Of a stretch of 41,775 nt of DNA, positions 1,171 through 25,197 are shown piece after piece. The translations under genes were made by a program, and so were the position numbers. Positions within the stretch are counted from its first letter, which is position 1. Each line of letters opens with the position of its first letter. The notes beneath the pieces were generated by a model, which had not been told where the DNA came from, did no database searches, and saw only the letters and a list, made by a program, of their open reading frames with translations. The stretch comes from an uncultured Fibrobacteria bacterium (GTDB taxonomy: Bacteria; Fibrobacterota; Fibrobacteria; UBA11236), in contig CBFGVC010000001.1 in assembly GCA_965652255.1 (NCBI GenBank), positions 1 through 41,775 on the forward strand, in the 5' to 3' direction.

Positions 1171-2336
1171 TTCCCGTTCCCCAGGTTCGGCCTCCAGCGC
1201 GGATTCTTCGAGGACATGTCCACCGAATAGAAATCGCGGGCGAACTTGGAGGCGTCCTTGCCGAGGTACTCGAGCAGGAAGCGGGCCACCCACTTCTCGA
1301 TCTTCAGCACCACCATCTTCTTGCGCAGGCGCCCTTGGCTGTCGCGGTTGAGGATGGACGGGATGGAGTTGAGCGAGAGGATCTCGTCGAGCAGCGGCGA
1401 GTTGAGGTTCTCGCGCCCCTCGGGCGAGGCGTAGAAATGCGTCACGCCGAAGATGATCTTGCGCGGGTTGCCCTCGCGCAGGAGGCGGCAGCACTCCACC
1501 ACCGTCGAGCCGGTGCGAACCATGTCGTCGAGGATGATCACGTCGCGCCCGGCGATGCCCTCGAGGGGCACGTCGGACCGCGCGCTGACCTCCATGCGCA
1601 CCTGGCGCTCGCCGGTGCGCGACTTTTCCATCACGATGCAGCGCGCGCCGGGCAGGTCGAGCGAGGTCCGGACCTCGCGGACGAAGGGCAGCGCGCCCAT
1701 GTCGGGCGCGCAAAGGACGAGGTTGTCGCCGCCCTGCCCCGGAAAGACCATGTCGGAGTGCTTGATGTAATCGGCGTACACCTCGTTGGGGATGAGGTTG
1801 TGGAACTCCCCGCCGAAGGTCTCCCCGAACAGCTTCTGCACCTTGGAGCTGTGGTTGTGCACCGTGATCACCGCGTCCACGCCCGAGAGCTTGAGCAGCT
1901 CGGCGTAGAGGTTTGCCGTGAACGGCTGGCCGTCGAACTTCTTGAGGTCCTCGAGCGGGCGCGCCTCCTCGTCCTCGGCGCGGCGCGGGCCGCGGTCCTG
2001 CGCCGAGAAGAACAGGTCGGGCTCGACGAGCACCACCTGCCTCGCGCCGTTCTCCTTGGCGCCGCGCGCCAGCATGAGCGTGCGCATCGCCAGCGAACCG
2101 CGCGAGTCGCTGGTGGCCGCCGAGCAGATCACCACCGTCTTGCCCTCGAGCGAGCGGCCGATGCGCTCCATGTCGCCCTCGTCGCTGATGTAGCGCGGGC
2201 AGAACTCGGAGTTGGCGTAGACCTTGAGCGAGATCAGGTCGGCGATCTCGTCGCGCTGGCCGCACATGTGCGCCAGGTCGATGGCGAAGGGGTCGTCGGA
2301 GACGTTGGAGACGATGAGGACGTCGCTGTTGCGCAT
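1167..2336 (-). CDS. prs: ribose-phosphate pyrophosphokinase (PRPP synthetase) family protein, long divergent form
   Basis: PRTase/PRPP-binding loop RDVIILDDMVRTGSTVVE. VVLVEPDLFFSAQDR aligns with the Prs Y-x-x-Y-A-R-Q-D-R region but is followed by an acidic insertion of about 25 aa (GPRRAEDEEARPLEDLKKFDGQ). It then continues FTANLYAELLKLSGVDAVITVHNH, like the Prs AKLVA..L..AG.d.v.t.DLH region. At 389 aa it is longer than the usual ~315 aa. Confidence 0.72.
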   Translation of the reverse strand: MRNSDVLIVSNVSDDPFAIDLAHMCGQRDEIADLISLKVYANSEFCPRYISDEGDMERIGRSLEGKTVVICSAATSDSRGSLAMRTLMLARGAKENGARQVVLVEPDLFFSAQDRGPRRAEDEEARPLEDLKKFDGQPFTANLYAELLKLSGVDAVITVHNHSSKVQKLFGETFGGEFHNLIPNEVYADYIKHSDMVFPGQGGDNLVLCAPDMGALPFVREVRTSLDLPGARCIVMEKSRTGERQVRMEVSARSDVPLEGIAGRDVIILDDMVRTGSTVVECCRLLREGNPRKIIFGVTHFYASPEGRENLNSPLLDEILSLNSIPSILNRDSQGRLRKKMVVLKIEKWVARFLLEYLGKDASKFARDFYSVDMSSKNPRWRPNLGNGK

Positions 2337-2411
2337 TGCCTGCCTTGGAAGGCCCGGTCGGCTGCCGGGAGACGGATCAAAGGGTAGCTAAATGCGGGGA
2401 TTCTTCGGGGT

Positions 2412-2550
2412 CGAAGCTTCCTTGGGGCAAGGTAACGGGTAATGGGTAACGGGTGCGGGAGAGCACGTAGAGGGGGGGCTGGACCGGGTTCCGACGCCAT
2501 TACCCGTTACCCGAAACCCATTACCCGTTCCCGTTCCCGACGAAGCTTCG
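2412..2550. repeat. heptamer-periodic inverted-repeat element C, between the glgP stop and the prs-like start
   Basis: Left arm GGTAACG|GGTAATG|GGTAACG|GGTGCGG. Right arm CCATTAC|CCGTTAC|CCGAAAC|CCATTAC|CCGTTCC. 15-bp perfect pairing 2431-2445 with 2497-2511, and an alternative 14-bp register 2434-2447 with 2516-2529. The element is closed by CGAAGCTTC (2412-2420) and CGAAGCTTCG (2541-2550). Confidence 0.8.
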
Positions 2551-2567
2551 CCGGCGAAGGACCTCCC

Positions 2568-5111
2568 CTACCCCTCCACCTTGACCGGCGTCGTCTTCCA
2601 CACGTCGCGGTTGTATTCCGCGATGGTGCGGTCGGAGGAGAACTCGCCCATGCGCGCCACGTTGAGGATGGCCGCGCGCGTCCACCATTCGGAGTCTCGG
2701 TAGCGCTCCGAGACCTCGCGCTGGCAGGCGGCGTAGGCGGCGAAATCGGCGAAGAGCATGTACTCGTCGTGGTGGTGCAGGCCGTCGAGGAAGCCGCGGA
2801 AAAGGCCCGGATCCTCGGGGCTGAAATGCCCGGCGCGCAGGAGCCCGAGCACGGCGGAGAGGGCGGGATCGGCCGCCGCGGCCGCGGCGGGGTCGTAGCC
2901 CGAGTCCTTGCGGGCCTGCACCTCGGCGGCCGTCATCCCGAACAGGAAGAAGTTCTCGGCGCCCACCGCCTCGCGGATCTCGATGTTGGCGCCGTCCAGG
3001 GTCCCGATGGTGAGCGCGCCGTTCAGGGCGAACTTCATGTTTCCCGTGCCGCTGGCCTCGGTGCCCGCCGTGGAGATCTGCTCCGAGAGGTCGCTGGCCG
3101 GGAAGATCTTCTCGGCCAGCGAGACCCGGTAATCCTCCAGGAAGACCACGCGCAGGATCCCGCGCGTGTCGGGATCGGCGTTGACCACGGAGGCCACCCC
3201 GTTGATCATCTTGATGATGAGCTTCGCCGTGTGGTACCCCGGCGCGGCCTTGCCGGCGAAGAGGAAGGTGCGCGGCAGCATCCCGTCGCCTCGCCCCGCC
3301 TTGATCTCGTTGTAGAGGTGCGCGACGTGCAGGATGTTCAGCGATTGCCGCTTGTACTCGTGGATGCGCTTCACCTGCACGTCGAACAGCGTGGAGGGAT
3401 CGCATTCGGTGTCGTGGGCGTGGCGGATCCAGGCGGCCAAGGCCGCCTTGTTCGCCCGCTTGACCTCGCGCCAGCGCTCGCGGAACTCGCCGTCGTCGGC
3501 GAAGCGCTCCAGCGCGTCGAGGCGCGAGAGGTCTCGCACCCAGCCGTCGCCGATCTTCTCGGTGATGAGGGAGGAGAGCCGGGGGTTGGCCTTGTAAAGC
3601 CAGCGCCGGGGCGTCACGCCGTTGGTCTTGTTGTGGAACTTCTCCGGCGTCAGCTCGGCGAAGTCCCTGAGCACCCGCGACTTGAGGAGTTCGGTATGCA
3701 GCGCGGCCACGCCGTTCACGGCGCTCGATCCAACCACCGCGAGGTAGGCCATGCGCACCGAGCGGTCGGTCCCCTCCTCGACCAGCGACATGCGGCGCAG
3801 GCGGTCGCCGTCGCCGGGATAGCGCCACGAGACCTGCTTGAGAAAGCGATAGTTGATCTCGTAGATGATCTGCAGGTGGCGCGGCAGGAGCCTGCCCAGG
3901 AGTTCCACGCCCCACTTCTCGAGCGCCTCGGGGAGCAAGGTGTGGTTCGTGTAGGCGAAGGCGCGCGTGGTGATGTCCCACGCGTGTTCCCAGGAGAAGC
4001 CTTCCTCGTCCACGAGCAGGCGCATCAACTCGGGGATGGAAATCGCCGGATGCGTGTCGTTCAGCTGGATCACGGCCTTCTCGGCCAACTGGCTGCAGTC
4101 CTTGTGGTACTTCTTGTGGCGGCGGAGGATGTCGTGCAAGGTGGCCGCGCACAGGAAGTACTGCTGCTTGAGCCGCAGCTCCTTGCCGTTCATCGAGCTG
4201 TCGTTGGGGTATAGGACCTTCGAGATGCTCTCGGCCAGCGCGATGTCCTTGCTCGCCTCCACGTAGTCGCCGCTGTTGAAGTAATGCAGGCCGAAGTCGT
4301 CGGACGACTTCGCCGACCAGAGCCGCAACGTGTTCACCGTGCCGCAGCCGTAACCAGGCACCGGCGTGTCGTAGGGCGCCGCCAGGACGGTCTCGGCGTC
4401 CACCCATTCGTGAAGCTCCACTCCCTGCGCGTTGCGGCGCGTCACCACGCGCCCCTTGAAGCGCACCGGCACGGTGTACTCCGGCCGCGAGATTTCCCAA
4501 GGGTTCGGCAGGCGCAGCCAGTTGTCGGGATGCTCCTGCTGCCAGCCGTCGCGGATCTTCTGGTGGAACATGCCGTAGTCGTAGCGGATGCCGTAGCCGT
4601 AGGCGGGCAACTCGAGCGTGGCCATCGAATCGAGGAAGCACGCCGCCAGGCGGCCGAGGCCCCCGTTGCCGAGGCCGGCCTCCAGCTCCTGCCCGCGCAA
4701 ATCCTCGAGGTTGAGCCCCAGGTCGTACATGGCCTCGCGCGCCTCGGAGTCGAGGCCGAGGTTGATGAGCGCGTTGCCGAGCGAGCGCCCCATCAGGAAC
4801 TCCATCGACAGGTAGTACACGCGGCGCGCGTCGTGGCGATAGTAGGCCTGCTGCGTGGCGATCCAGCGCGCGATCAGCTTGTCGCGCGCGGCATAGGCCA
4901 GCGCGAGGTACTTGTCGTAGGGCGTGGCGGAATACTTGTCCTTGCCCAGCGACGACTCGAGATGGCGGAAGAACGCCGCCTCGATGCCGTGATGCGCGTC
5001 GGCCTGCGGAATCGAGCGCTCCTCGAGGTCACGCGACTTGGGGGAGGCCTTCGCGGGCTTGGAGCTTTTCGGGGACTTCGGGTTCGACTTGGACTTTGAA
5101 GAGGCGGGCAT
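2568..5111 (-). CDS. glgP: glycogen/maltodextrin phosphorylase (GT35)
   Basis: Canonical PLP-lysine block EASGTGNMKFALNGALTIGTLDGANIEI, with full-length similarity of motif order to alpha-glucan phosphorylases. I chose the start at ATG 5109-5111 (MPASSKSKS...), which has GGAG 6 nt upstream. The track ORF extends to 5213 through a non-coding-looking stretch. Confidence 0.95.
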   Translation of the reverse strand: MPASSKSKSNPKSPKSSKPAKASPKSRDLEERSIPQADAHHGIEAAFFRHLESSLGKDKYSATPYDKYLALAYAARDKLIARWIATQQAYYRHDARRVYYLSMEFLMGRSLGNALINLGLDSEAREAMYDLGLNLEDLRGQELEAGLGNGGLGRLAACFLDSMATLELPAYGYGIRYDYGMFHQKIRDGWQQEHPDNWLRLPNPWEISRPEYTVPVRFKGRVVTRRNAQGVELHEWVDAETVLAAPYDTPVPGYGCGTVNTLRLWSAKSSDDFGLHYFNSGDYVEASKDIALAESISKVLYPNDSSMNGKELRLKQQYFLCAATLHDILRRHKKYHKDCSQLAEKAVIQLNDTHPAISIPELMRLLVDEEGFSWEHAWDITTRAFAYTNHTLLPEALEKWGVELLGRLLPRHLQIIYEINYRFLKQVSWRYPGDGDRLRRMSLVEEGTDRSVRMAYLAVVGSSAVNGVAALHTELLKSRVLRDFAELTPEKFHNKTNGVTPRRWLYKANPRLSSLITEKIGDGWVRDLSRLDALERFADDGEFRERWREVKRANKAALAAWIRHAHDTECDPSTLFDVQVKRIHEYKRQSLNILHVAHLYNEIKAGRGDGMLPRTFLFAGKAAPGYHTAKLIIKMINGVASVVNADPDTRGILRVVFLEDYRVSLAEKIFPASDLSEQISTAGTEASGTGNMKFALNGALTIGTLDGANIEIREAVGAENFFLFGMTAAEVQARKDSGYDPAAAAAADPALSAVLGLLRAGHFSPEDPGLFRGFLDGLHHHDEYMLFADFAAYAACQREVSERYRDSEWWTRAAILNVARMGEFSSDRTIAEYNRDVWKTTPVKVEG

Positions 5112-5248: not shown

Positions 5249-6036
5249 TGTCCGGCGCCGAGGTTTACCTTTTCTTCTCCATGACCTCCCCTGCTTCCTT
5301 TTTTCTCTCCTTGGGCCTCGAACCGCTCGCATGGGAGGAGGTCCTGCGCCGCGCCGAGGCGCGGCTCGGCGAAAAGGCGTCGAACAAGACCTCGGAGTTC
5401 GCGCGGCTGCACCGCGCCTTCGTCGCCTATCCGACCGAGCGCACCGCCCGCGCCTTCTATGACTTCGTCGCAGGGAACGACCTGCACGGATTGCTCGCAT
5501 GCCATCGCTTCGATCGCCTCGTCGCCATCGCCGAATCGCTGGATGCCTCACGGCCTTTTCCCCTCGACGGCTCCTCGATCCTCGACATCGGCGCGGGCGG
5601 AGGTTTCCTTGCCACCTGGCTCCGCGACGCGCGCGGAGCGCGCGTCGCGGTCTCGGACCTTTCTCCCGCCTCCGAGGCGGCGCTGGCCGCGCAAGGCTTC
5701 GAATCGCTGCGGGACCTTCCGGAAGACAGGCGCTTCGACTTCATCCTGTGCGCCGACAGCCTCGGCGAAGTCCACTCCGACGAGGACGATTGGCTCGCCG
5801 ACGCCGCGAACGCGGGGGATCCCGCCTTCGTCGAGGAACTGGAGGCGCGCTACGGCCTCGCGCGCAAGCTGGCCGCGCTGCGCCCGCGGCTTGCCGCGGG
5901 CGGCCGCGTCGCGCTCTTCGAGCCCGCGCCCCAGGCGCACTTCTGGCGCGGCGCGGCGCGGCTTTTGGAAGGCGAAGGATGGAACGTCGAGGTCCTTGGG
6001 CCTGGGCCCGCCTGGCGCATGATCCTCAAGGCCTGA
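5248..6036 (+). CDS. class I SAM-dependent methyltransferase
   Basis: Motif I ILDIGAGGGFLATWL, followed by an acidic post-I residue (VAVSDLS) and FDFILCADSLGEV. The start is uncertain: TTG 5185, ATG 5248 or ATG 5281 are all in frame. Third-position G/C bias only becomes gene-like after 5248. Confidence 0.7.
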   Translation: MSGAEVYLFFSMTSPASFFLSLGLEPLAWEEVLRRAEARLGEKASNKTSEFARLHRAFVAYPTERTARAFYDFVAGNDLHGLLACHRFDRLVAIAESLDASRPFPLDGSSILDIGAGGGFLATWLRDARGARVAVSDLSPASEAALAAQGFESLRDLPEDRRFDFILCADSLGEVHSDEDDWLADAANAGDPAFVEELEARYGLARKLAALRPRLAAGGRVALFEPAPQAHFWRGAARLLEGEGWNVEVLGPGPAWRMILKA

Positions 6037-6110
6037 GGCCACGGGCGGCCCCGGAGGGGCGCCACTTCGGCATCCGCCGGCCCCGAATCCGTTCATCGCC
6101 CCCGAATGCT

Positions 6111-6152
6111 CCCCCTTTCCCCTCTCCGCCCCCGGGGAGAGGGGAAAGGGGG
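6111..6152 (+). terminator. 17-bp perfect GC-rich hairpin downstream of the methyltransferase gene (terminator-like, no U-tract)
   Basis: CCCCCTTTCCCCTCTCC (6111-6127), 8-nt loop, GGAGAGGGGAAAGGGGG (6136-6152). Complementarity was checked base by base. Confidence 0.5.
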
Positions 6153-6155
6153 GCT

Positions 6156-6164
6156 TGATATAAT
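6156..6164 (+). promoter_or_regulatory. extended -10 promoter candidate (TGnTATAAT) for the peroxiredoxin gene
   Basis: TGATATAAT at 6156-6164, about 135 nt upstream of ATG 6299. There is no good -35, which is usual for extended -10 promoters. Confidence 0.45.
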
Positions 6165-6298
6165 CCATCGACTTTCCTGGGGTTAGGGGCGAGGGATAAG
6201 CCAACGCCAGACCCTACCCGCTCGCAATCTTTCGATTTAGATTGATTCTAATCCCTGTGTTTTAACCGAACAAACCAACCCCCACGAAAGGATCCCCC

Positions 6299-6886
6299 AT
6301 GGCAGTTCTCGTCGGCAAAGCCGCCCCCGATTTCACCGAGGAAGTCGCGATCGGCCAGTCCACCAAGAAGATCTCGCTCTCCGATTACAAGGGCAAGAAG
6401 TACGTCGTGCTGTTCTTCTACCCGCTCGACTTCACCTTCGTCTGCCCCACCGAGATCCACGCGTTCGAGGAGGCCCGCAAGGAGTTCGAGAGCCGCGGCG
6501 CGGTGGTGCTCGGCTGCTCGGTCGACTCGGCCCACTCGCACATGGCCTGGCTGCGCACCCCGAAGAACCAGGGCGGCATCGAGGGCGTGAACTACCCGAT
6601 CATCGCCGACATCCACAAGCGCGTTTCGCGCGCCTACGACGTGCTCGACGAGGACGCGGGCATCACCTACCGCGCCTCGTTCGTGATCGACAAGAACGGC
6701 GTGGTGCAGGCGCAGGTGGTCCACCACCGCCCCATCGGCCGCAACGTGGACGAGGTGATCCGCCTGCTCGACGCGCTGCAGTACAGCGAGGAGCACGGCG
6801 AGGTTTGCCCCGCGGGCTGGACGAAGGGCCAGAAGGCCATGAAGGCCGACCTCAAGGACGTGGGCGCGTACCTCGCGAAGAAGTAA
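6299..6886 (+). CDS. typical 2-Cys peroxiredoxin (Prx1/AhpC subfamily)
   Basis: Peroxidatic Cys block FFYPLDFTFVCPTEI and resolving Cys block GEVCPAGW. At 195 aa the length is typical. Confidence 0.93.
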   Translation: MAVLVGKAAPDFTEEVAIGQSTKKISLSDYKGKKYVVLFFYPLDFTFVCPTEIHAFEEARKEFESRGAVVLGCSVDSAHSHMAWLRTPKNQGGIEGVNYPIIADIHKRVSRAYDVLDEDAGITYRASFVIDKNGVVQAQVVHHRPIGRNVDEVIRLLDALQYSEEHGEVCPAGWTKGQKAMKADLKDVGAYLAKK

Positions 6887-6905
6887 GCGAAACGCCGGCG
6901 ACGAA

Positions 6906-6944
6906 GGCCCGGTTCCCGCGAGGGGGCCGGGTTCTTTGTTTTCG
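6906..6944 (+). terminator. rho-independent terminator of the peroxiredoxin gene
   Basis: GGCCCGGTTCCC (6906-6917), GCGA tetraloop, GGGGGCCGGGTT (6922-6933). This gives 12 bp including four G:U pairs, followed by CTTTGTTTTC. Confidence 0.7.
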
Positions 6945-6954
6945 AAGCTTCGGG

Positions 6955-6983
6955 GAGGGTGGACGGTGGAAGGTAGAGGAACG
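6955..6983. repeat. left G-rich heptad arm L1 flanking the SulP segment
   Basis: GAGGGTGGACGGTGGAAGGTAGAGGAACG. GGTGGACGGTGG (6958-6969) is the exact reverse complement of 9157-9168. GGAACG (6978-6983) is the reverse complement of 9151-9156. Positions 6955-6969 match the reverse complement of 9111-9125 at 13 of 15. The arm is preceded by the palindrome CGAAGCTTCG (6943-6952). Confidence 0.6.
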
Positions 6984-7131
6984 CTACGGCGGGGCTGGAA
7001 GCCCGCCACGAAACATGGATAACAAATCCCTGTTTGCACAAGGCCTGACGCTGGACCAGAACGCATCTTCGGTTTGTTGCTCGATCATGTTGTTCATTAT
7101 TTGGGAAACCCTCTTCGAAGCGGTGCGTTGT

Positions 7132-7147
7132 GGTGGACGGTTGAAGG
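7132..7147. repeat. second copy L2 of the left arm
   Basis: GGTGGACGGTTGAAGG versus L1 GGTGGACGGTGGAAGG (6958-6973): 15 of 16 identical, in direct orientation. Confidence 0.55.
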
Positions 7148-7160
7148 AAGCATGCCTTCC

Positions 7161-7186
7161 GAGATGACGCGCGGAGGCGTCATCTC
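7161..7186 (+). promoter_or_regulatory. perfect 10-bp hairpin 33 nt upstream of the SulP start codon
   Basis: GAGATGACGC (7161-7170), loop GCGGAG, GCGTCATCTC (7177-7186). Confidence 0.5.
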
Positions 7187-7218
7187 GGGGAGTTGCGACT
7201 TATTAATTTTGAGAGTGG

Positions 7219-8958
7219 ATGGTGGGCTCCCTTGGCCCGGGTTCCGGGTTTGACAAGTCTTCCAAGGCGGCATCCTCGCCACCGCGTGATGCGCTGTACC
7301 CCAAACTTTTTTCCCTGCTAAAAGGCTATACGCGACGAGATTTCGTCGGGGATTTGTGGGCCGGTATCGTCGTCGGCGTCGTGGCGTTGCCACTGGCCAT
7401 AGCCTTTGCGATAGCCTCCGGTGTGGCGCCTGAAAAAGGGCTCGTGACGGCGGTGGTAGCCGGCTTCCTCATTTCGGCTTTGGGTGGAAGCCGAGTGCAA
7501 ATTGGCGGTCCCACCGGGGCTTTCGTCGTCATCGTCTACGGAATCGTGGAGAAGTACGGCGTTAGCGGGCTTGCCATTGCCACGTTCATGGCCGGAGCAA
7601 TGCTGGTTGCCATGGGGCTCGCGAGGTTGGGATCGCTCATGCGCTTCATCCCGCACCCGGTGATTGTCGGATTCACCAGCGGGATCGCCGTCATCATAGC
7701 GTCCACGCAGGCCCGTGACTTTTTCGGTCTAGGTATGCCGTCCATGCCCTCGGAATTCTTCGCCAAGTGGGCTGCCATTTTCCGGCACGTTGGCACGGTA
7801 AACGTTCAGGCCCTTGGCCTCGGCGTTCTTTGCGTAGCCGTTCTCATGTTTTGGCCCAAGGTGTCCCGCAAGGTTCCGGCTTCCTTGGTGGGGTTGATTT
7901 TGTGCACCGTGCTCGCACGGTGGTTCAATCTTTCCGTGGAAACGGTTGGGTCACGGTTCGGGAGTATTCCCGGCGTATTTCCCGCTCCGCACCTACCGGA
8001 CCTCGAATGGGAGATTCTCCGGAACCTGGTGCAACCCGCAATTGCAATCGCTCTCCTCGCAGGAATCGAGTCCTTGCTTTCGGCTACGGTTGCGGACGGG
8101 ATGATTGGCGGGCGGCACCGCCCCAACATGGAGTTGGTCGCCCAAGGCATTGCGAACATTGCCTCCCCGCTATTCGGAGGCATTCCGGCCACAGGGGCCA
8201 TTGCCCGCACAGCTACGAATGTCAAGAATGGGGGTAGAACACCGATTGCGGGGATAGTCCACGCACTCACGCTCCTGGGGATTATGCTGGTTCTCGGCCG
8301 TTATGCCGTGTTGATTCCCCTTTCCTGCCTTGCGGCCATCTTACTCGTGGTGGCGTACCATATGAGTGAGTGGCGCACCTTCGTCGCGCTATTCCGGGGA
8401 CCACGAGCCGACATAGCGGTATTGCTAACTACGTTCGTGTTGACGGTCGTGGTGGACCTCACGGTCGCTATCACGACGGGTGTGGTGCTGGCACTCCTGC
8501 TGTTCATGAAGCAGATGTCGGAGGCTTTTCATGTCGGTCCCCTGGCGAATGGGCAGGGACAGGAAGATATCCTCGAACGGGGCTCGATTCCTGAGGGCGT
8601 GGAAGTGTATGAGGTCAATGGTCCGTTGTTTTTTGGAGCCGCTCAGAAATTCGAGGAAGCCATAACTGCCATCAGCCTTAAGCCCAAGGCGCTCATACTC
8701 CGGTTGCGCAATCTCCTGTCCCTCGACGCCTCGGGGTTACACGCCTTGCAAAGCGTGCACAAGAATTGCGAACGACAAGGCATCGTCCTAATTCTCTCAG
8801 GGGTACACGTCCAACCGACCATTGCCCTTTTCCAGAGTGGATTGGCCGATAAAATCGGGGAGGCGAATCTGTTCCCCAACTTTGAGCCCGCCTTGGAACG
8901 GGCTCGGGAGGTTGTAGGTTCTGACACCGCGTTGACTAGCGGTTATGTCGAGGGGTAG
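7219..8958 (+). CDS. SulP family anion transporter with C-terminal STAS domain
   Basis: N-terminal block RDFVGDLWAGIVVGVVALPLAIAFAIASGV, about 10-12 hydrophobic segments, and a C-terminal STAS-like region (VEVYEVNGPLFFGAAQKFEE...LILRLRNLLSLDASGLHAL). GC is about 55-58% in two hand-counted 60-mers versus about 67% in the neighbouring prx gene. Confidence 0.9.
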   Translation: MVGSLGPGSGFDKSSKAASSPPRDALYPKLFSLLKGYTRRDFVGDLWAGIVVGVVALPLAIAFAIASGVAPEKGLVTAVVAGFLISALGGSRVQIGGPTGAFVVIVYGIVEKYGVSGLAIATFMAGAMLVAMGLARLGSLMRFIPHPVIVGFTSGIAVIIASTQARDFFGLGMPSMPSEFFAKWAAIFRHVGTVNVQALGLGVLCVAVLMFWPKVSRKVPASLVGLILCTVLARWFNLSVETVGSRFGSIPGVFPAPHLPDLEWEILRNLVQPAIAIALLAGIESLLSATVADGMIGGRHRPNMELVAQGIANIASPLFGGIPATGAIARTATNVKNGGRTPIAGIVHALTLLGIMLVLGRYAVLIPLSCLAAILLVVAYHMSEWRTFVALFRGPRADIAVLLTTFVLTVVVDLTVAITTGVVLALLLFMKQMSEAFHVGPLANGQGQEDILERGSIPEGVEVYEVNGPLFFGAAQKFEEAITAISLKPKALILRLRNLLSLDASGLHALQSVHKNCERQGIVLILSGVHVQPTIALFQSGLADKIGEANLFPNFEPALERAREVVGSDTALTSGYVEG

Positions 8959-22491: not shown

Positions 22492-22977
22492 ATGTCGCAT
22501 CCCGATTCGAACGAAAAGCTTCCCGGACACACCTACGACGCCAAGGTCCTGTTGCGGGTCTACCTGACCTTGCTCGCCTTCGCGGCGGCGATGGTGGCGA
22601 TCTCGCGCCTTCCCCTCGAGGCCCTGCCCATCGAGTGGATCGACCTTCACGTGCTGAAGGGCCTGATCATCCTCGGACTCTCCGTCGCCATGACGGCCGT
22701 GGTGGCCGGATACCTGATGGGCCTCAAGTACGAGTCCTCGAAGTTGAACACCTTGCTGTTCCTGAGCAACTTCGCCTTCCTCGCCCTGTTCGCCGTCTTC
22801 ACCTGGGCCGATGTCCGTTACCGCGGGCTTATCGACCCCTCCTTCGAGAAGCAGATCAACTGGGAATCGCCGGTGATCAAGGCCAACGAAGCCGCCAAGG
22901 AAAACGCCGCCGGGGATGATGACGATTACGACTACGATGACGAGGACGACTACGATTACGATTACGAGGACGAGTAA
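22492..22977 (+). CDS. cytochrome c oxidase subunit IV-like small membrane protein with an acidic Asp/Tyr-rich tail
   Basis: Three predicted TM helices directly after ctaE. The C-terminal 20 aa read DDDDYDYDDEDDYDYDYEDE (22915-22974). Confidence 0.75.
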   Translation: MSHPDSNEKLPGHTYDAKVLLRVYLTLLAFAAAMVAISRLPLEALPIEWIDLHVLKGLIILGLSVAMTAVVAGYLMGLKYESSKLNTLLFLSNFAFLALFAVFTWADVRYRGLIDPSFEKQINWESPVIKANEAAKENAAGDDDDYDYDDEDDYDYDYEDE

Positions 22978-22986
22978 GCCGTCCTC

Positions 22987-23676
22987 GTGAATCGGAGTCC
23001 GATGCCCACGCCGCACCCCCCTGCCCTCTCCCGCCGCTCGCTCCTCCTTCTGTCGCTGATGGCCCCGGCGGGCCTCCTGGTCATCGCCGGCATCATCGCG
23101 CTGCTCCAGTACCGGCAGTTCCGTGGAATGGTATCCCCCGAACCCGTCGTGTCCGAATCCGTGCCGACCACCGGCGATTCGGCTCGCCTCGCGGCGCTCG
23201 GCGGCCTGCTGAGGAGGTTTCCGGCAGGCGAAGGCCCCGACACCTTGTCCCTCTCCCTCTCCGACCTGACCTTGCTGGCGGCCGCTTCTCCGGCCGTCAT
23301 CCGCGACGGCCTCCGCATCCGCCTCGTCGCGCACGACTCGCTGTTGGCGATGGAAACATCCCGCCCCGTGGACTCCCTTCAAGGTCGCGCGGCCGGATTT
23401 TTCAAGCGCATCGCCCCCGTGCCGGACGGGTGGCTGAATGCCCGCGTGGAGGGCCTGCCGGAATGGAAGAAAGGGGCGCTCACGCTCGACCCCGAACGGG
23501 GCTACCTCAATGGCACGAAGGTCCCGCGCACGGCGCTGACCAAGCGCGGCGGACTCACGCCGCGCGACTTCCTCGCCCCGGAGCAGCTTCCAGCTTATGA
23601 AAGGTTCCTGGAGGCGCTGGACACGGTGTGGTACGATGGAAAAAGCGTGCTTTTGATTCGAAATCGCGGCCGATAA
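22987..23676 (+). CDS. hypothetical N-terminally anchored protein at the tail of the oxidase operon
   Basis: GTG 22987 or ATG 23002. One TM helix (LLLLSLMAPAGLLVIAGIIALL) and host-like composition. No motif recognised. Confidence 0.6.
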   Translation: MNRSPMPTPHPPALSRRSLLLLSLMAPAGLLVIAGIIALLQYRQFRGMVSPEPVVSESVPTTGDSARLAALGGLLRRFPAGEGPDTLSLSLSDLTLLAAASPAVIRDGLRIRLVAHDSLLAMETSRPVDSLQGRAAGFFKRIAPVPDGWLNARVEGLPEWKKGALTLDPERGYLNGTKVPRTALTKRGGLTPRDFLAPEQLPAYERFLEALDTVWYDGKSVLLIRNRGR

Positions 23677-23731
23677 TAGTGCCCGGATGTATAAGGAAAT
23701 GAGTTATATTGACTCTTCAGGAGGGTGAATC

Positions 23732-23896
23732 ATGTCGAACGGCGCCAATATTTCCAAAAAGGAAGCGGACAAAGTTGTTCGCGAAATGAAGGCGTTTACA
23801 AGAAAGCTTTCTTCCTCCTCTTCGCTTGCCAAGAAATTCCTTGAAAAGACGGGAATTTATACGCATTCCGGGGCACTTAAAGCGTCTTATAAGTAA
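23732..23896 (+). CDS. 54-aa Lys-rich helical protein (candidate partner or antitoxin of the following gene)
   Basis: Not in the ORF track (too short). AGGAGGG lies at 23719-23725, 6-7 nt before ATG 23732. Hand translation: MSNGANISKKEADKVVREMKAFTRKLSSSSSLAKKFLEKTGIYTHSGALKASYK, with TAA at 23894-23896. It lies in the low-GC islet. Confidence 0.5.
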   Translation: MSNGANISKKEADKVVREMKAFTRKLSSSSSLAKKFLEKTGIYTHSGALKASYK

Positions 23897-23905
23897 TCCA
23901 TCGCA

Positions 23906-24508
23906 GTGCAATCATTTTTCCCGTCCTTCATCCTGGCTTACCATGGATGCGATAAGTCGGTTGGTGAAAAAGTATTACTCGGCGAAGCAAGGCTCGACCA
24001 TAGCAAGAACGACTATGACTGGTTGGGGAGTGGCGTGTACTTCTGGGAAGGTAATCCATCACGTGCCTTGGAATATGCGCGCCATTTGAAAGCCCATCCA
24101 CAAAAAGGCAAGCCGCCGATTCGGGATCCTTTTGTGGTTGGAGCAGTGATTGATCTGGGGAATTGCCTCAACCTCACGGAGCACGGTTATCTCAAAATCG
24201 TACAAGAAGGTTATAACATGTTGGTCGCCTCGTCCGAAAAGCATGGCGCGCCCCTCCCAAAAAATTCCTCCCCGAAGGGAGAAACGCACGATTTGCTTCT
24301 AAGGCGTCTCGATTGCGCTGTAATTGAAACCATACATGCCTTTTACAAGGATGCCGAAAAACCGGCATTCGATACAGTCAGGGGAATCTTCGTGGAGGGT
24401 GGCCCTTTATACGAGAATTCCGGATTCCACGGGAAAACCCATATACAAGTTTGCGTTCGCAATGATTCGTGTATCAAAGGTTACTTCCGCCCGGCAATGC
24501 CTGCATGA
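23906..24508 (+). CDS. 200-aa protein with an ADP-ribosyltransferase-fold-like H-Y-[E/Q] signature (PARP/DUF3990-like); function unknown
   Basis: AYHGCD, then 25 aa, then WLGSGVYFWE. This mirrors the ART beta1-His and G-x-G-(I/V)-Y-F blocks. Candidate third catalytic position lies in LYENSGF or THIQVCV. GTG start 9 nt after the upstream ORF. About 42-52% GC in hand-counted 60-mers. The stop TGA overlaps the gph ATG. Confidence 0.6.
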   Translation: MQSFFPSFILAYHGCDKSVGEKVLLGEARLDHSKNDYDWLGSGVYFWEGNPSRALEYARHLKAHPQKGKPPIRDPFVVGAVIDLGNCLNLTEHGYLKIVQEGYNMLVASSEKHGAPLPKNSSPKGETHDLLLRRLDCAVIETIHAFYKDAEKPAFDTVRGIFVEGGPLYENSGFHGKTHIQVCVRNDSCIKGYFRPAMPA

Positions 24509-25197
24509 GCTTAACTCGTCTCACCTCATTCAACCTTTGGGTCTTCGACCTCGACGGCACCTTGATCGACAGCCGCCTCGACCTCGCGAACGCCGTCAAC
24601 GGCACGCTCGAGGCGCGCGGCCTCCCCCGGCTGCCCGAGGACCTCATCGTGTCCTTCGTGGGCGACGGCGCGGACGACCTGATCCTGCGCTCCTTCGCGG
24701 CGGCAGGATGGCCCCAGGCCGAGGCCCGTGAAAACCTTCCCGCCATCCTGCGCGAATTCCTGGACCGCTACGCCGCCCATTGCCTCGACCGCACCACGGT
24801 GTTCCCCGGCGCGCGCGAGCTTCTCGACGCGCTCAAGGCCCGCGGCCTGCCCCTCGCCGTGCTCACCAACAAGCCCGACCGCCTCACGCGCGCGGTGCTG
24901 GCAGGCCTCGGCCTGCAGGACTATTTCACCGAGGTGGTCCCGGGCGACGGACCGCTCGGGAAGAAACCCGACCCCCGCGGATTGGCCTATATTATGAAGG
25001 CCATGAACTCTTCCCCGGGCGAATCCGTGCTGGTGGGCGACAGCATCCAGGACCTGCGCACGGCCCGCGCCGCGGGCACGGCTTTCCTGGCCTTTCTGGG
25101 CGGGCTCGGCGACGCGGAGGCCGTGGCCGCCGAGGGCCCCGACCTGGCGACCGGATCCTTCCTGGATCTCGCGCGAAAACTGGAGTCCGAAGGATGA
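24505..25197 (+). CDS. gph: HAD-IA hydrolase, phosphoglycolate phosphatase-like
   Basis: Motif I FDLDGTLIDS, motif II LTNKP, motif III KKPDP and motif IV VGDSIQD. Start taken at ATG 24505 (MSLTRL...), which forms ATGA with the upstream stop. Confidence 0.85.
   Translation: MSLTRLTSFNLWVFDLDGTLIDSRLDLANAVNGTLEARGLPRLPEDLIVSFVGDGADDLILRSFAAAGWPQAEARENLPAILREFLDRYAAHCLDRTTVFPGARELLDALKARGLPLAVLTNKPDRLTRAVLAGLGLQDYFTEVVPGDGPLGKKPDPRGLAYIMKAMNSSPGESVLVGDSIQDLRTARAAGTAFLAFLGGLGDAEAVAAEGPDLATGSFLDLARKLESEG

Follow-up and report, generated by a model that had tools for sequence, protein, structure and literature searches.

A horizontally acquired two-gene cassette encoding a small basic protein and a predicted CmdT-like ADP-ribosyltransferase-fold protein in an uncultured Fibrobacteria bacterium

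A low-GC two-gene insert between the cox cluster and gph-miaB

The DNA studied here is a 41,775-nucleotide stretch from an uncultured Fibrobacteria bacterium (contig CBFGVC010000001.1 of assembly GCA_965652255.1), called the window throughout, and our subject is a sharply delimited low-GC block of ~830 bp at positions 23677-24508, which lies between a cytochrome oxidase (cox) cluster and gph-miaB. The block is a horizontally acquired, self-contained cassette of two genes, the first encoding a basic protein of 54 residues and the second a protein of 200 residues predicted to have an ADP-ribosyltransferase (ART) fold of the H-Y-[E/D/Q] type (Table 1). We argue below that the pair is probably a toxin with its cognate neutralizer.

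The boundaries of the insert are plain in its composition. In 200-nt windows the GC fraction falls from 0.69 at 23300-23599 to 0.43-0.51 at 23600-24499 and returns to 0.67-0.73 past 24500. By gene, the overall GC and the GC at third codon positions (GC3) are 0.438 and 0.50 for the 54-residue open reading frame (ORF) and 0.497 and 0.525 for the 200-residue ORF, vs 0.678 and 0.817 for the gene upstream of the insert and 0.691 and 0.87 for gph. The two cassette ORFs are in one frame, split by a TAA codon plus 9 nt (23894-23908). The sequence AGGAGGG stands 6 nt ahead of the ATG of the small ORF, and no obvious Shine-Dalgarno sequence precedes the GTG of the large one. Neither a sigma-70-like promoter nor a plus-strand terminator was found in 23300-24900, and at or near the insert there were no terminal inverted or direct repeats, tRNA, Rfam elements or integrase. 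An earlier reading of this DNA, made without database searches (the sequence-only reading), had called the low-GC islet, the small ORF with AGGAGGG upstream, the second ORF 9 nt past it, the ATGA overlap with gph and the foreign origin of the islet, and these calls agree with the results given here and below.

Table 1 Features of the insert and its boundaries in the window
Feature	Position	Strand	Basis
Host gene, 229-residue ORF (called as 224 residues), last of the cox cluster; left boundary	22987-23676	+	Homologs P0277-P0283
AT-rich cassette leader with Shine-Dalgarno sequence AGGAGGG at 23719-23725	23677-23731	+	Sequence
Small basic partner, 54 residues	23732-23896	+	ORF; homologs upstream of the ART gene
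Spacer of 9 nt between the two ORFs	23897-23905	+	Sequence
Predicted ART-fold protein, 200 residues, GTG start, CmdT-like, H-Y-[E/D/Q] type	23906-24508	+	ORF, profiles, model
His13 codon, putative first triad residue, strand beta-1	23942-23944	+	Conservation, CmdT alignment, model
Tyr45 codon, putative second triad residue, G-x-G-V-Y-F-W	24038-24040	+	Conservation, CmdT alignment
Glu164 codon, best candidate for the third triad residue	24395-24397	+	E126/D2/Q1
Asp156 codon, alternative third triad residue	24371-24373	+	D107/Q10/E4
Gln181 codon, alternative third triad residue	24446-24448	+	Q123/E4
ATGA overlap of the ART-gene stop and the gph start	24505-24508	+	Sequence; identical in L089
Host gph (HAD phosphatase), then miaB; right boundary	24505-25197	+	DLDGTL motif near the N-terminus

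The cassette was acquired at this site and is under purifying selection

Homologs of the host gene upstream of the insert were collected and what comes next was inspected. In relatives these homologs (P0277-P0283) come after COX3 and a gene of ~156-161 codons, and HAD/gph is directly next. In loci L092-L094, where the upstream gene is 77% identical to that of the window, HAD/gph lies 128 nt downstream, and in L095 and L096 (58% identity) gph-miaB lies 75 nt downstream; in these loci the site is empty. In L097 and L098 (52% identity) the site is occupied by a different gene of 897 codons (5853-8546 in both). Throughout L092-L098 the genes downstream of the site are HAD and then radical-SAM/UPF0004 genes. 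In alignments host homology ends at the stop codon at 23676 and restarts near codon 4 of gph. The cassette took the place of a native short AT-rich spacer and, as L097 and L098 hold a different gene there, the spacer between the cox cluster and gph looks like a recurrent insertion site. The 897-residue protein, encoded at the equivalent of window positions 23677-24504, has BNR repeats and a Por_Secre_tail domain. The spacers of the empty sites (L092 2692-2819 and L095 5676-5750) are AT-rich and contain inverted and direct repeats (AATTACGAA / TTCGTAATT) that might act as terminator or operator or represent a REP-like (repetitive extragenic palindromic) element.

A second carrier lineage is represented by L089, an independent assembly from another sample with 88% mean column identity at the DNA level, which has both cassette genes and the gph junction. 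Window positions 23732-24505 correspond to L089 36-809, its genes were called at 210-812 and 809-1222 with the same ATGA overlap, and GAGGAGGGTGA of the cassette leader is also kept. This bears on the concern, raised in the sequence-only reading, that the islet might be an assembly chimera: the right junction is shared by L089 but, as that sequence begins 35 nt upstream of the small ORF, the left junction lies beyond its reach and rests on one assembly. At dS values of 0.84-0.95, the dN/dS ratios between the window and L089 are 0.052 for the small gene, 0.067 for the ART gene and 0.267 for gph, and the low values of the two cassette genes indicate that both are translated and strongly constrained. 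The GC3 of the cassette is ~0.50-0.53 in both lineages despite this divergence, next to a gph of far higher GC3. One explanation would be a block on amelioration, such as selection that favors rare codons or low expression; the other would be an exchange of the cassette between the lineages.

The cassette is likely to be co-transcribed with the flanking operons. As the native gph leader has been replaced and the stop/start overlap is present in both carrier lineages, expression of gph-miaB is probably coupled to the cassette. The host genes would then probably now need the cassette for transcription and translational coupling, a dependence that may contribute to anchoring a selfish element at the site.

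The 200-residue protein has a predicted ART fold and a conserved H-Y-[E/D/Q] signature

The 200-residue protein belongs to a large family that has gone without a name. Its homologs form 4,623 clusters at 90% identity, and an exhaustive search of 50%-identity clusters matched 2,615 representatives, with 1,486 at E <= 1e-10; nearly all are ~200 residues long and unnamed. The only significant full-length profile match was to phrog_14664 (E 1e-15), a PHROG of unknown function, and NCBIfam has no family for the protein. Among 40 family members, 21 gave a weak match to the Pfam PARP profile (best E 1.9e-4), one matched the Exotox-A profile and none had a Pfam sequence match to ART-PolyVal. A sequence search of PDB chains with the protein and its profile gave only spurious matches at E > 0.02 (a designed kelch protein, a sorting nexin and others), which we discarded.

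The fold was more informative. An AlphaFold2 model built from a 40-sequence alignment had a pLDDT of 88.7 and a pTM of 0.84. In Foldseek comparisons with the PDB the top match was a cyanophage A4 pre-ejectosome protein (9k3a_B), exotoxin A (3b78_B) matched with a probability of 1.00 and an E value of 7.7e-4, and the ART domain of PARP1 with a probability of 0.9-0.95; further matches were Tpt1/KptA (weak), the RES toxin NatT (8qnl_C, probability 0.6), TreTu and the anti-CRISPR protein 6kyf. Among viral models (BFVD) the best matches were ART-PolyVal domains, with a probability of 1.00 and E values of 1e-5 to 1e-3.

Residue conservation was counted in 129 near-full-length representatives of 50%-identity clusters. 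His13, in a predicted strand at residues 9-16, is His in all 124 sequences aligned at that position, and Tyr45, in a predicted strand at residues 44-48, is Tyr in 129 of 129. A second aromatic position (57), ~12 residues past Tyr45, is aromatic in 128 of 129. Position 164 is E, D or Q in all 129, and E/D/Q-type variation is also seen at positions 156 and 181; E164 is the best candidate for the third catalytic residue. As the His, Tyr and acidic positions are conserved in 129 such diverse relatives, catalysis by these proteins seems probable. On the strength of the model and the conserved motifs, we assign the 200-residue protein to the H-Y-[E/D/Q] clade of ART folds, with the His and Tyr of the signature kept and three candidates for its third residue.

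The sequence-only reading had proposed this clade from the motifs FILAYHGCD and WLGSGVYFWE. Both are present, although the gap between them is 22 residues (17-38) rather than the 25 given; the weak PARP matches and the confident model with its ART-fold best matches uphold the assignment, and conservation of the His and the Tyr among homologs, on which the proposal depended, came out in its favor. Its placing of the third catalytic residue fared less well. The Glu of LYENSGF (E170) is replaced by Pro in 65 of 129 sequences, the Gln of THIQVCV (Q181) stays a possible choice, and the stronger or equal candidates E164 and D156 had been missed.

CmdT is the closest characterized relative

PD-T4-9 is the CmdTAC toxin-antitoxin-chaperone anti-phage system (PMC9519451, PMC11618068). 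Its first gene encodes CmdT, an H-Y-[E/D/Q] ADP-ribosyltransferase that modifies mRNA (PMC11618068; bioRxiv 10.1101/2024.02.24.581848). Conversion of CmdT Tyr41 to Ala abolishes both defense and toxicity, and CmdA both restrains CmdT and is required for its accumulation (PMC11618068).

The PADLOC PD-T4-9_A models were matched by 39 of 40 family members (best E 2e-6). As reference we used the cmdTAC locus (L100) in a P2-like prophage of E. coli N2250, which was found via a primer sequence from the supplement of the paper. Alignment of the family profile with the CmdT of this locus by hhalign gave a probability of 89.9 and an E value of 1.7e-6, and paired H13 with the His of CmdT GFHNC and the G-V-Y45-F-W segment with G-Y-Y-F-W of CmdT, a motif that should contain Y41. 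These alignments indicate that the closest characterized relative of the protein is CmdT, as a distant homolog and not an ortholog. In L100 cmdTAC lies at 1947-3160, CmdA has 77 residues and the SecB-like CmdC scores 24.9 bits, just under the Pfam SecB threshold of 26.

A small basic partner is encoded directly upstream at nearly every locus

The 54-residue protein has a pI of 10.1 and 12 Lys plus Arg residues, and its family has a median pI of 10.0. A word-index homology search with this protein gave a single close relative besides the protein itself. In 88 genomic loci the DNA ahead of the large gene was then translated and scanned with a six-sequence profile. A partner homolog was found in 86 of the 88 by the first profile and in all 88 after iteration, with exactly one per locus, directly upstream. 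The distance from the end of the partner gene to the start of the large gene is -34 to +71 nt across the genomic loci, and many of the pairs overlap. Of 64 viral contigs with the large gene, 62 have the partner, 59 by profile and 3 as visibly divergent copies, which brings the pairing to 150 of 152 loci overall.

The partner proteins have the conserved core FL..(A/T)GI.T..G.L...Y(K/R), right past which many copies terminate. They match no Pfam, NCBIfam, PADLOC or PDB family. The small and large ORFs are fused in frame in one natural protein of 249 residues (P0109), and a second, degraded fusion (P0216) is without the His region; with one clean case and one degraded case, such fusions are too rare to be weighed as Rosetta-stone evidence.

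The cassette is widespread and mobile

Relatives were found in at least 573 species genomes of many phyla, and the carriers include Planctomycetota, Verrucomicrobiota, Lentisphaerota, Bacteroidota, Spirochaetota (Leptospira), Bacillota (Paenibacillus), Pseudomonadota, Nitrospirota and Armatimonadota. Among the neighbors within 2.5 kb, no family is seen at more than 3 of the 83 loci, and no third component, chaperone or regulator was found there. The cassette is carried on 70 plasmids, 35 of them conjugative. On a Pseudomonas amygdali plasmid it adjoins resolvase, partition-ATPase (MipZ-like) and replication-initiator genes, and on Rhizobium pRL8 it stands between trb and tra genes. A literature search gave no paper that mentions the RefSeq accessions of the plasmid members. 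The 64 viral contigs with the cassette are from IMG/VR, and in one of them (L104, 58 kb, positions 5690-6594) the cassette is a moron in the siphophage structural block, between the major-head/neck genes and the tape-measure gene.

The GC content of the module tracks that of its host (r = 0.905), yet falls below that of its flanks in 74 of 79 loci (median difference -0.057). In the window the difference is ~-0.20 (0.44-0.50 vs 0.68-0.69), larger than at any high-GC locus listed.

Two outlying proteins deserve mention. Gp25 of Synechococcus phage S-B28 (L099 3968-4321; 117 residues, DUF6321 in BFVD) matches the ART-fold protein only over residues 9-74, the half that runs from the His to the Tyr, with 44% identity. 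From this match and the fold match to 9k3a_B it appears that ART-type fragments or domains occur in cyanopodovirus proteins. P0207, a metagenomic protein of 692 residues, combines an N-terminal ART-like domain with an RHS repeat and, at its C-terminus, a nuclease of the WHH/colicin-DNase type. This is the context of a polymorphic toxin, and the fusion may be genuine or may stem from faulty gene calling.

Other features of the locus

In antisense orientation, the ART gene contains a hairpin (GTTTCTCCCTTCGGGGAGGAAT) with a T-run after it that resembles a terminator (24264-24285, minus strand). As such sites are no more numerous than in shuffled sequence, it probably arose by chance. In the cox cluster, the 161-residue protein encoded at 22492-22977 has an unusual acidic Asp/Tyr tail at its end (DDDDYDYDDEDDYDYDYEDE), and genes of similar size have the same position in relatives.

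Discussion

We consider it most likely, at a probability of about 0.6, that the cassette encodes an ART toxin and its cognate neutralizer in a bicistronic module of the toxin-antitoxin or defense type. This judgement draws on sequence, the structure model and analogy, and is ranked first because the catalytic signature appears complete and the nearest characterized relative is a proven toxin. The small-gene-first bicistron, the tight ORFs, the strict pairing, the patchy mobility and the plasmid-maintenance and prophage-moron sites together give the cassette the anatomy of a selfish or defensive module. A small first gene in an overlapping bicistron is typical of type II toxin-antitoxin pairs. 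The fold, the conservation of the triad, the obligate pairing, the mobility, the acquisition at this site and the purifying selection all find support in the analysis.

A toxin-neutralizer pair might work as follows. Both proteins would be made from one transcript, the small one by means of its strong Shine-Dalgarno sequence and the enzyme from a GTG without such a sequence, probably by translational coupling, so that the partner would be in excess; the strong site at the small gene and the GTG 9 nt past its stop are what suggest this arrangement. The partner would bind the enzyme and hold it inactive, and might aid its folding, as CmdA does for CmdT; by that analogy a dual role in accumulation and restraint of the enzyme is possible. 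Upon loss or displacement of the partner, through plasmid loss, phage infection or stress, the enzyme would ADP-ribosylate an essential macromolecule and arrest growth. By analogy with CmdT the target would most plausibly be RNA or another nucleic acid, and the outcome would be addiction to the plasmid or islet, or defense by abortive infection.

Several observations weigh against the toxin-neutralizer interpretation. The PARP match of the 200-residue protein itself (E 5.8e-4, residues 9-113) scores 19.9 bits, under the gathering score of 26.7. The Foldseek TM-scores are modest (0.36-0.51 overall), as expected if the modeled protein is a divergent small domain. The alignment with CmdT spans only 49 N-terminal columns, the remainder being without alignment, and the third catalytic residue is ambiguous among D156, E164 and Q181. 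On the side of the partner, family models recognize no helix-turn-helix, DNA-binding or antitoxin fold, and a basic partner with an enzyme family near neutrality (median pI 6.6) is the reverse of the common pattern of acidic antitoxin and basic toxin. In two of the 64 viral loci, both with very divergent homologs, no partner is recognizable. The model of the natural fusion P0109, in which the partner segment is a helical hairpin, is of moderate confidence (pLDDT 71-84 for that segment, overall pTM 0.75) and gives no contact information. Enzymatic activity, toxicity, neutralization by the small protein and the target are what we infer from the features above.

An active ART need not poison its own host. 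It could instead be an offensive enzyme in the service of the mobile element, one that counters defense or reprograms a host, like the anti-CRISPR AcrIF11 and the ARTs in polyvalent or ejected phage proteins, with the small protein as a specificity or targeting subunit. The structural neighbors include the anti-CRISPR protein 6kyf, the pre-ejectosome protein 9k3a_B and the ART-PolyVal domains of phage virion proteins; moreover, phages and conjugative plasmids carry the cassette. As the partner is basic and has no known antitoxin fold, resembling a nucleic-acid-binding adaptor more than a classical acidic antitoxin, an adaptor or targeting role is conceivable. However, the majority of copies lie on chromosomes, in unrelated settings that are not mobile and have no further mobile-element genes nearby, the copy in the window is under strong purifying selection within a housekeeping operon, away from any phage or plasmid, and the overlapping bicistron with its small gene first has the order seen in toxin-antitoxin pairs; we regard an offensive enzyme as unlikely. 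At the opposite extreme, the ART-fold protein could be inert, a binding protein or pseudoenzyme, or else a housekeeping factor tied to gph-miaB or to the oxidase cluster, as might be thought from its place within a housekeeping operon that it overlaps translationally in the window and from the absence of a detected promoter or terminator of its own. This we find very improbable: the presumed catalytic positions are conserved over the 129 diverse relatives, the host's relatives lack the cassette at this site, and other copies stand in unrelated contexts where cox, gph and miaB are not recurrent neighbors.

The pair could also be an unannotated member of the DUF3791/DUF3990 pair, which belongs in part to the Pfam ART clan and is uncharacterized. 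DUF3990 is in that clan (PMC7955679), the layout of a small upstream gene and an ART-like gene is similar, and the UniRef entry of one homolog (P0003, 60% identical) is named 'DUF3990 domain-containing protein', a label that the Pfam model did not reproduce. At E <= 1 the DUF3990 model (PF13151) matched none of 40 members and the DUF3791 model none of 52 small proteins, and the precomputed Pfam field was empty in all 120 homologs listed. We think such membership doubtful, more so than an offensive role, and it would supply a name without a mechanism even if true.

Nucleic-acid-modifying ART toxins, with DarT acting on DNA, CmdT on mRNA and RhsP2 on structured RNA as examples, have recently become a rapidly developing subject in the study of phage defense and bacterial conflict, and here is an abundant and compact cassette (~770 bp of coding sequence) that has no family-level assignment in Pfam, NCBIfam or PADLOC. 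If the toxin-neutralizer interpretation is true, the small proteins would be a new antitoxin family, a CmdT-like warhead would also work in a minimal two-gene format without a chaperone, and a new enzyme for site-specific ADP-ribosylation would be at hand. More tentatively, at somewhat less than even odds, the cassette could stand as the first example of an extensive two-component ART family still without a name, with at least 2,600 clusters at 50% identity, spread over most bacterial phyla as well as plasmids and phages. In it, a small basic protein of a new type would both license the CmdT-like enzyme and hold it in check, and the enzyme would have its own nucleic-acid target specificity, giving plasmid addiction or abortive phage defense without a chaperone sensor.

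Comparison with known systems

The sequence-only reading had looked to DUF3791/DUF3990, DarTG and ParST as analogs, the models of which gave no match; CmdT took their place as the closest characterized protein. DarTG, ParST, RES-Xre/NatRT and MbcTA do resemble the cassette in being mobile, in having two genes and in pairing an ART-fold toxin with a cognate partner that keeps it in check. The triad of the cassette, H-Y-E as best read, differs from the R-S-E and RES types of the DarTG/ParST/RES group. DarTG was rejected as there was no DarT (DUF4433) match in Pfam or PADLOC and the partner has 54 residues and is not a macrodomain, and RES-Xre and ParST were rejected as there was no RES or ParT match and the partner is not of the Xre helix-turn-helix or DUF2384/COG5642 type. 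Tpt1 as the family was likewise discarded, with no Pfam match and a weak fold match only. The DUF3791/DUF3990 pair shares the order of a small upstream gene and an ART-clan gene, and differs in that its Pfam models detect no member of either cassette family. ART-PolyVal domains are parts of large multidomain virion proteins, whereas the protein studied here is a stand-alone protein of 200 residues with a dedicated small partner.

With exotoxin A, diphtheria toxin and PARP (PF00644, PF09009) the protein shares, by its model and motifs, the fold, the His on beta1, the Tyr in G-x-G-x-Y-F, a later aromatic residue and a conserved acidic residue. It differs from exotoxin A and PARP in sequence similarity, which is sub-threshold, in TM-scores of ~0.36-0.40, in having no translocation, receptor or regulatory domains within its 200 residues and in its cytoplasmic bicistronic context.

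The comparison with CmdTAC is the closest. CmdA is encoded downstream of CmdT, whereas here the partner gene comes before the ART gene; CmdA and the partner are unrelated (hhalign probability 0.2); and over 83 loci neither a SecB-like chaperone (CmdC) nor any other conserved third gene lies within 2.5 kb. The cassette is not a CmdTAC. Neither CmdT nor the 200-residue protein reaches a Pfam threshold; the family matches phrog_14664 and CmdT matches no PHROG, which rules out phrog_14664 as CmdT under another name. Nonetheless, the likenesses are several: both proteins are single-domain ARTs of ~190-200 residues, as far as the model can tell for ours, with an H-Y-[E/D/Q] signature and an apparently homologous N-terminal beta1-alpha1-beta2 region, both have exotoxin A as their best solved structural match (for CmdT, PMC11618068), and both are carried by mobile elements beside a small cognate partner gene.

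More generally, the cassette has the layout of a type II-like toxin-antitoxin module: the bicistron is compact, its small gene comes first, the ORFs are close or overlapping and their co-occurrence is strict. It also has the patchy and mobile distribution of such modules over plasmids, prophages and variable chromosomal sites.

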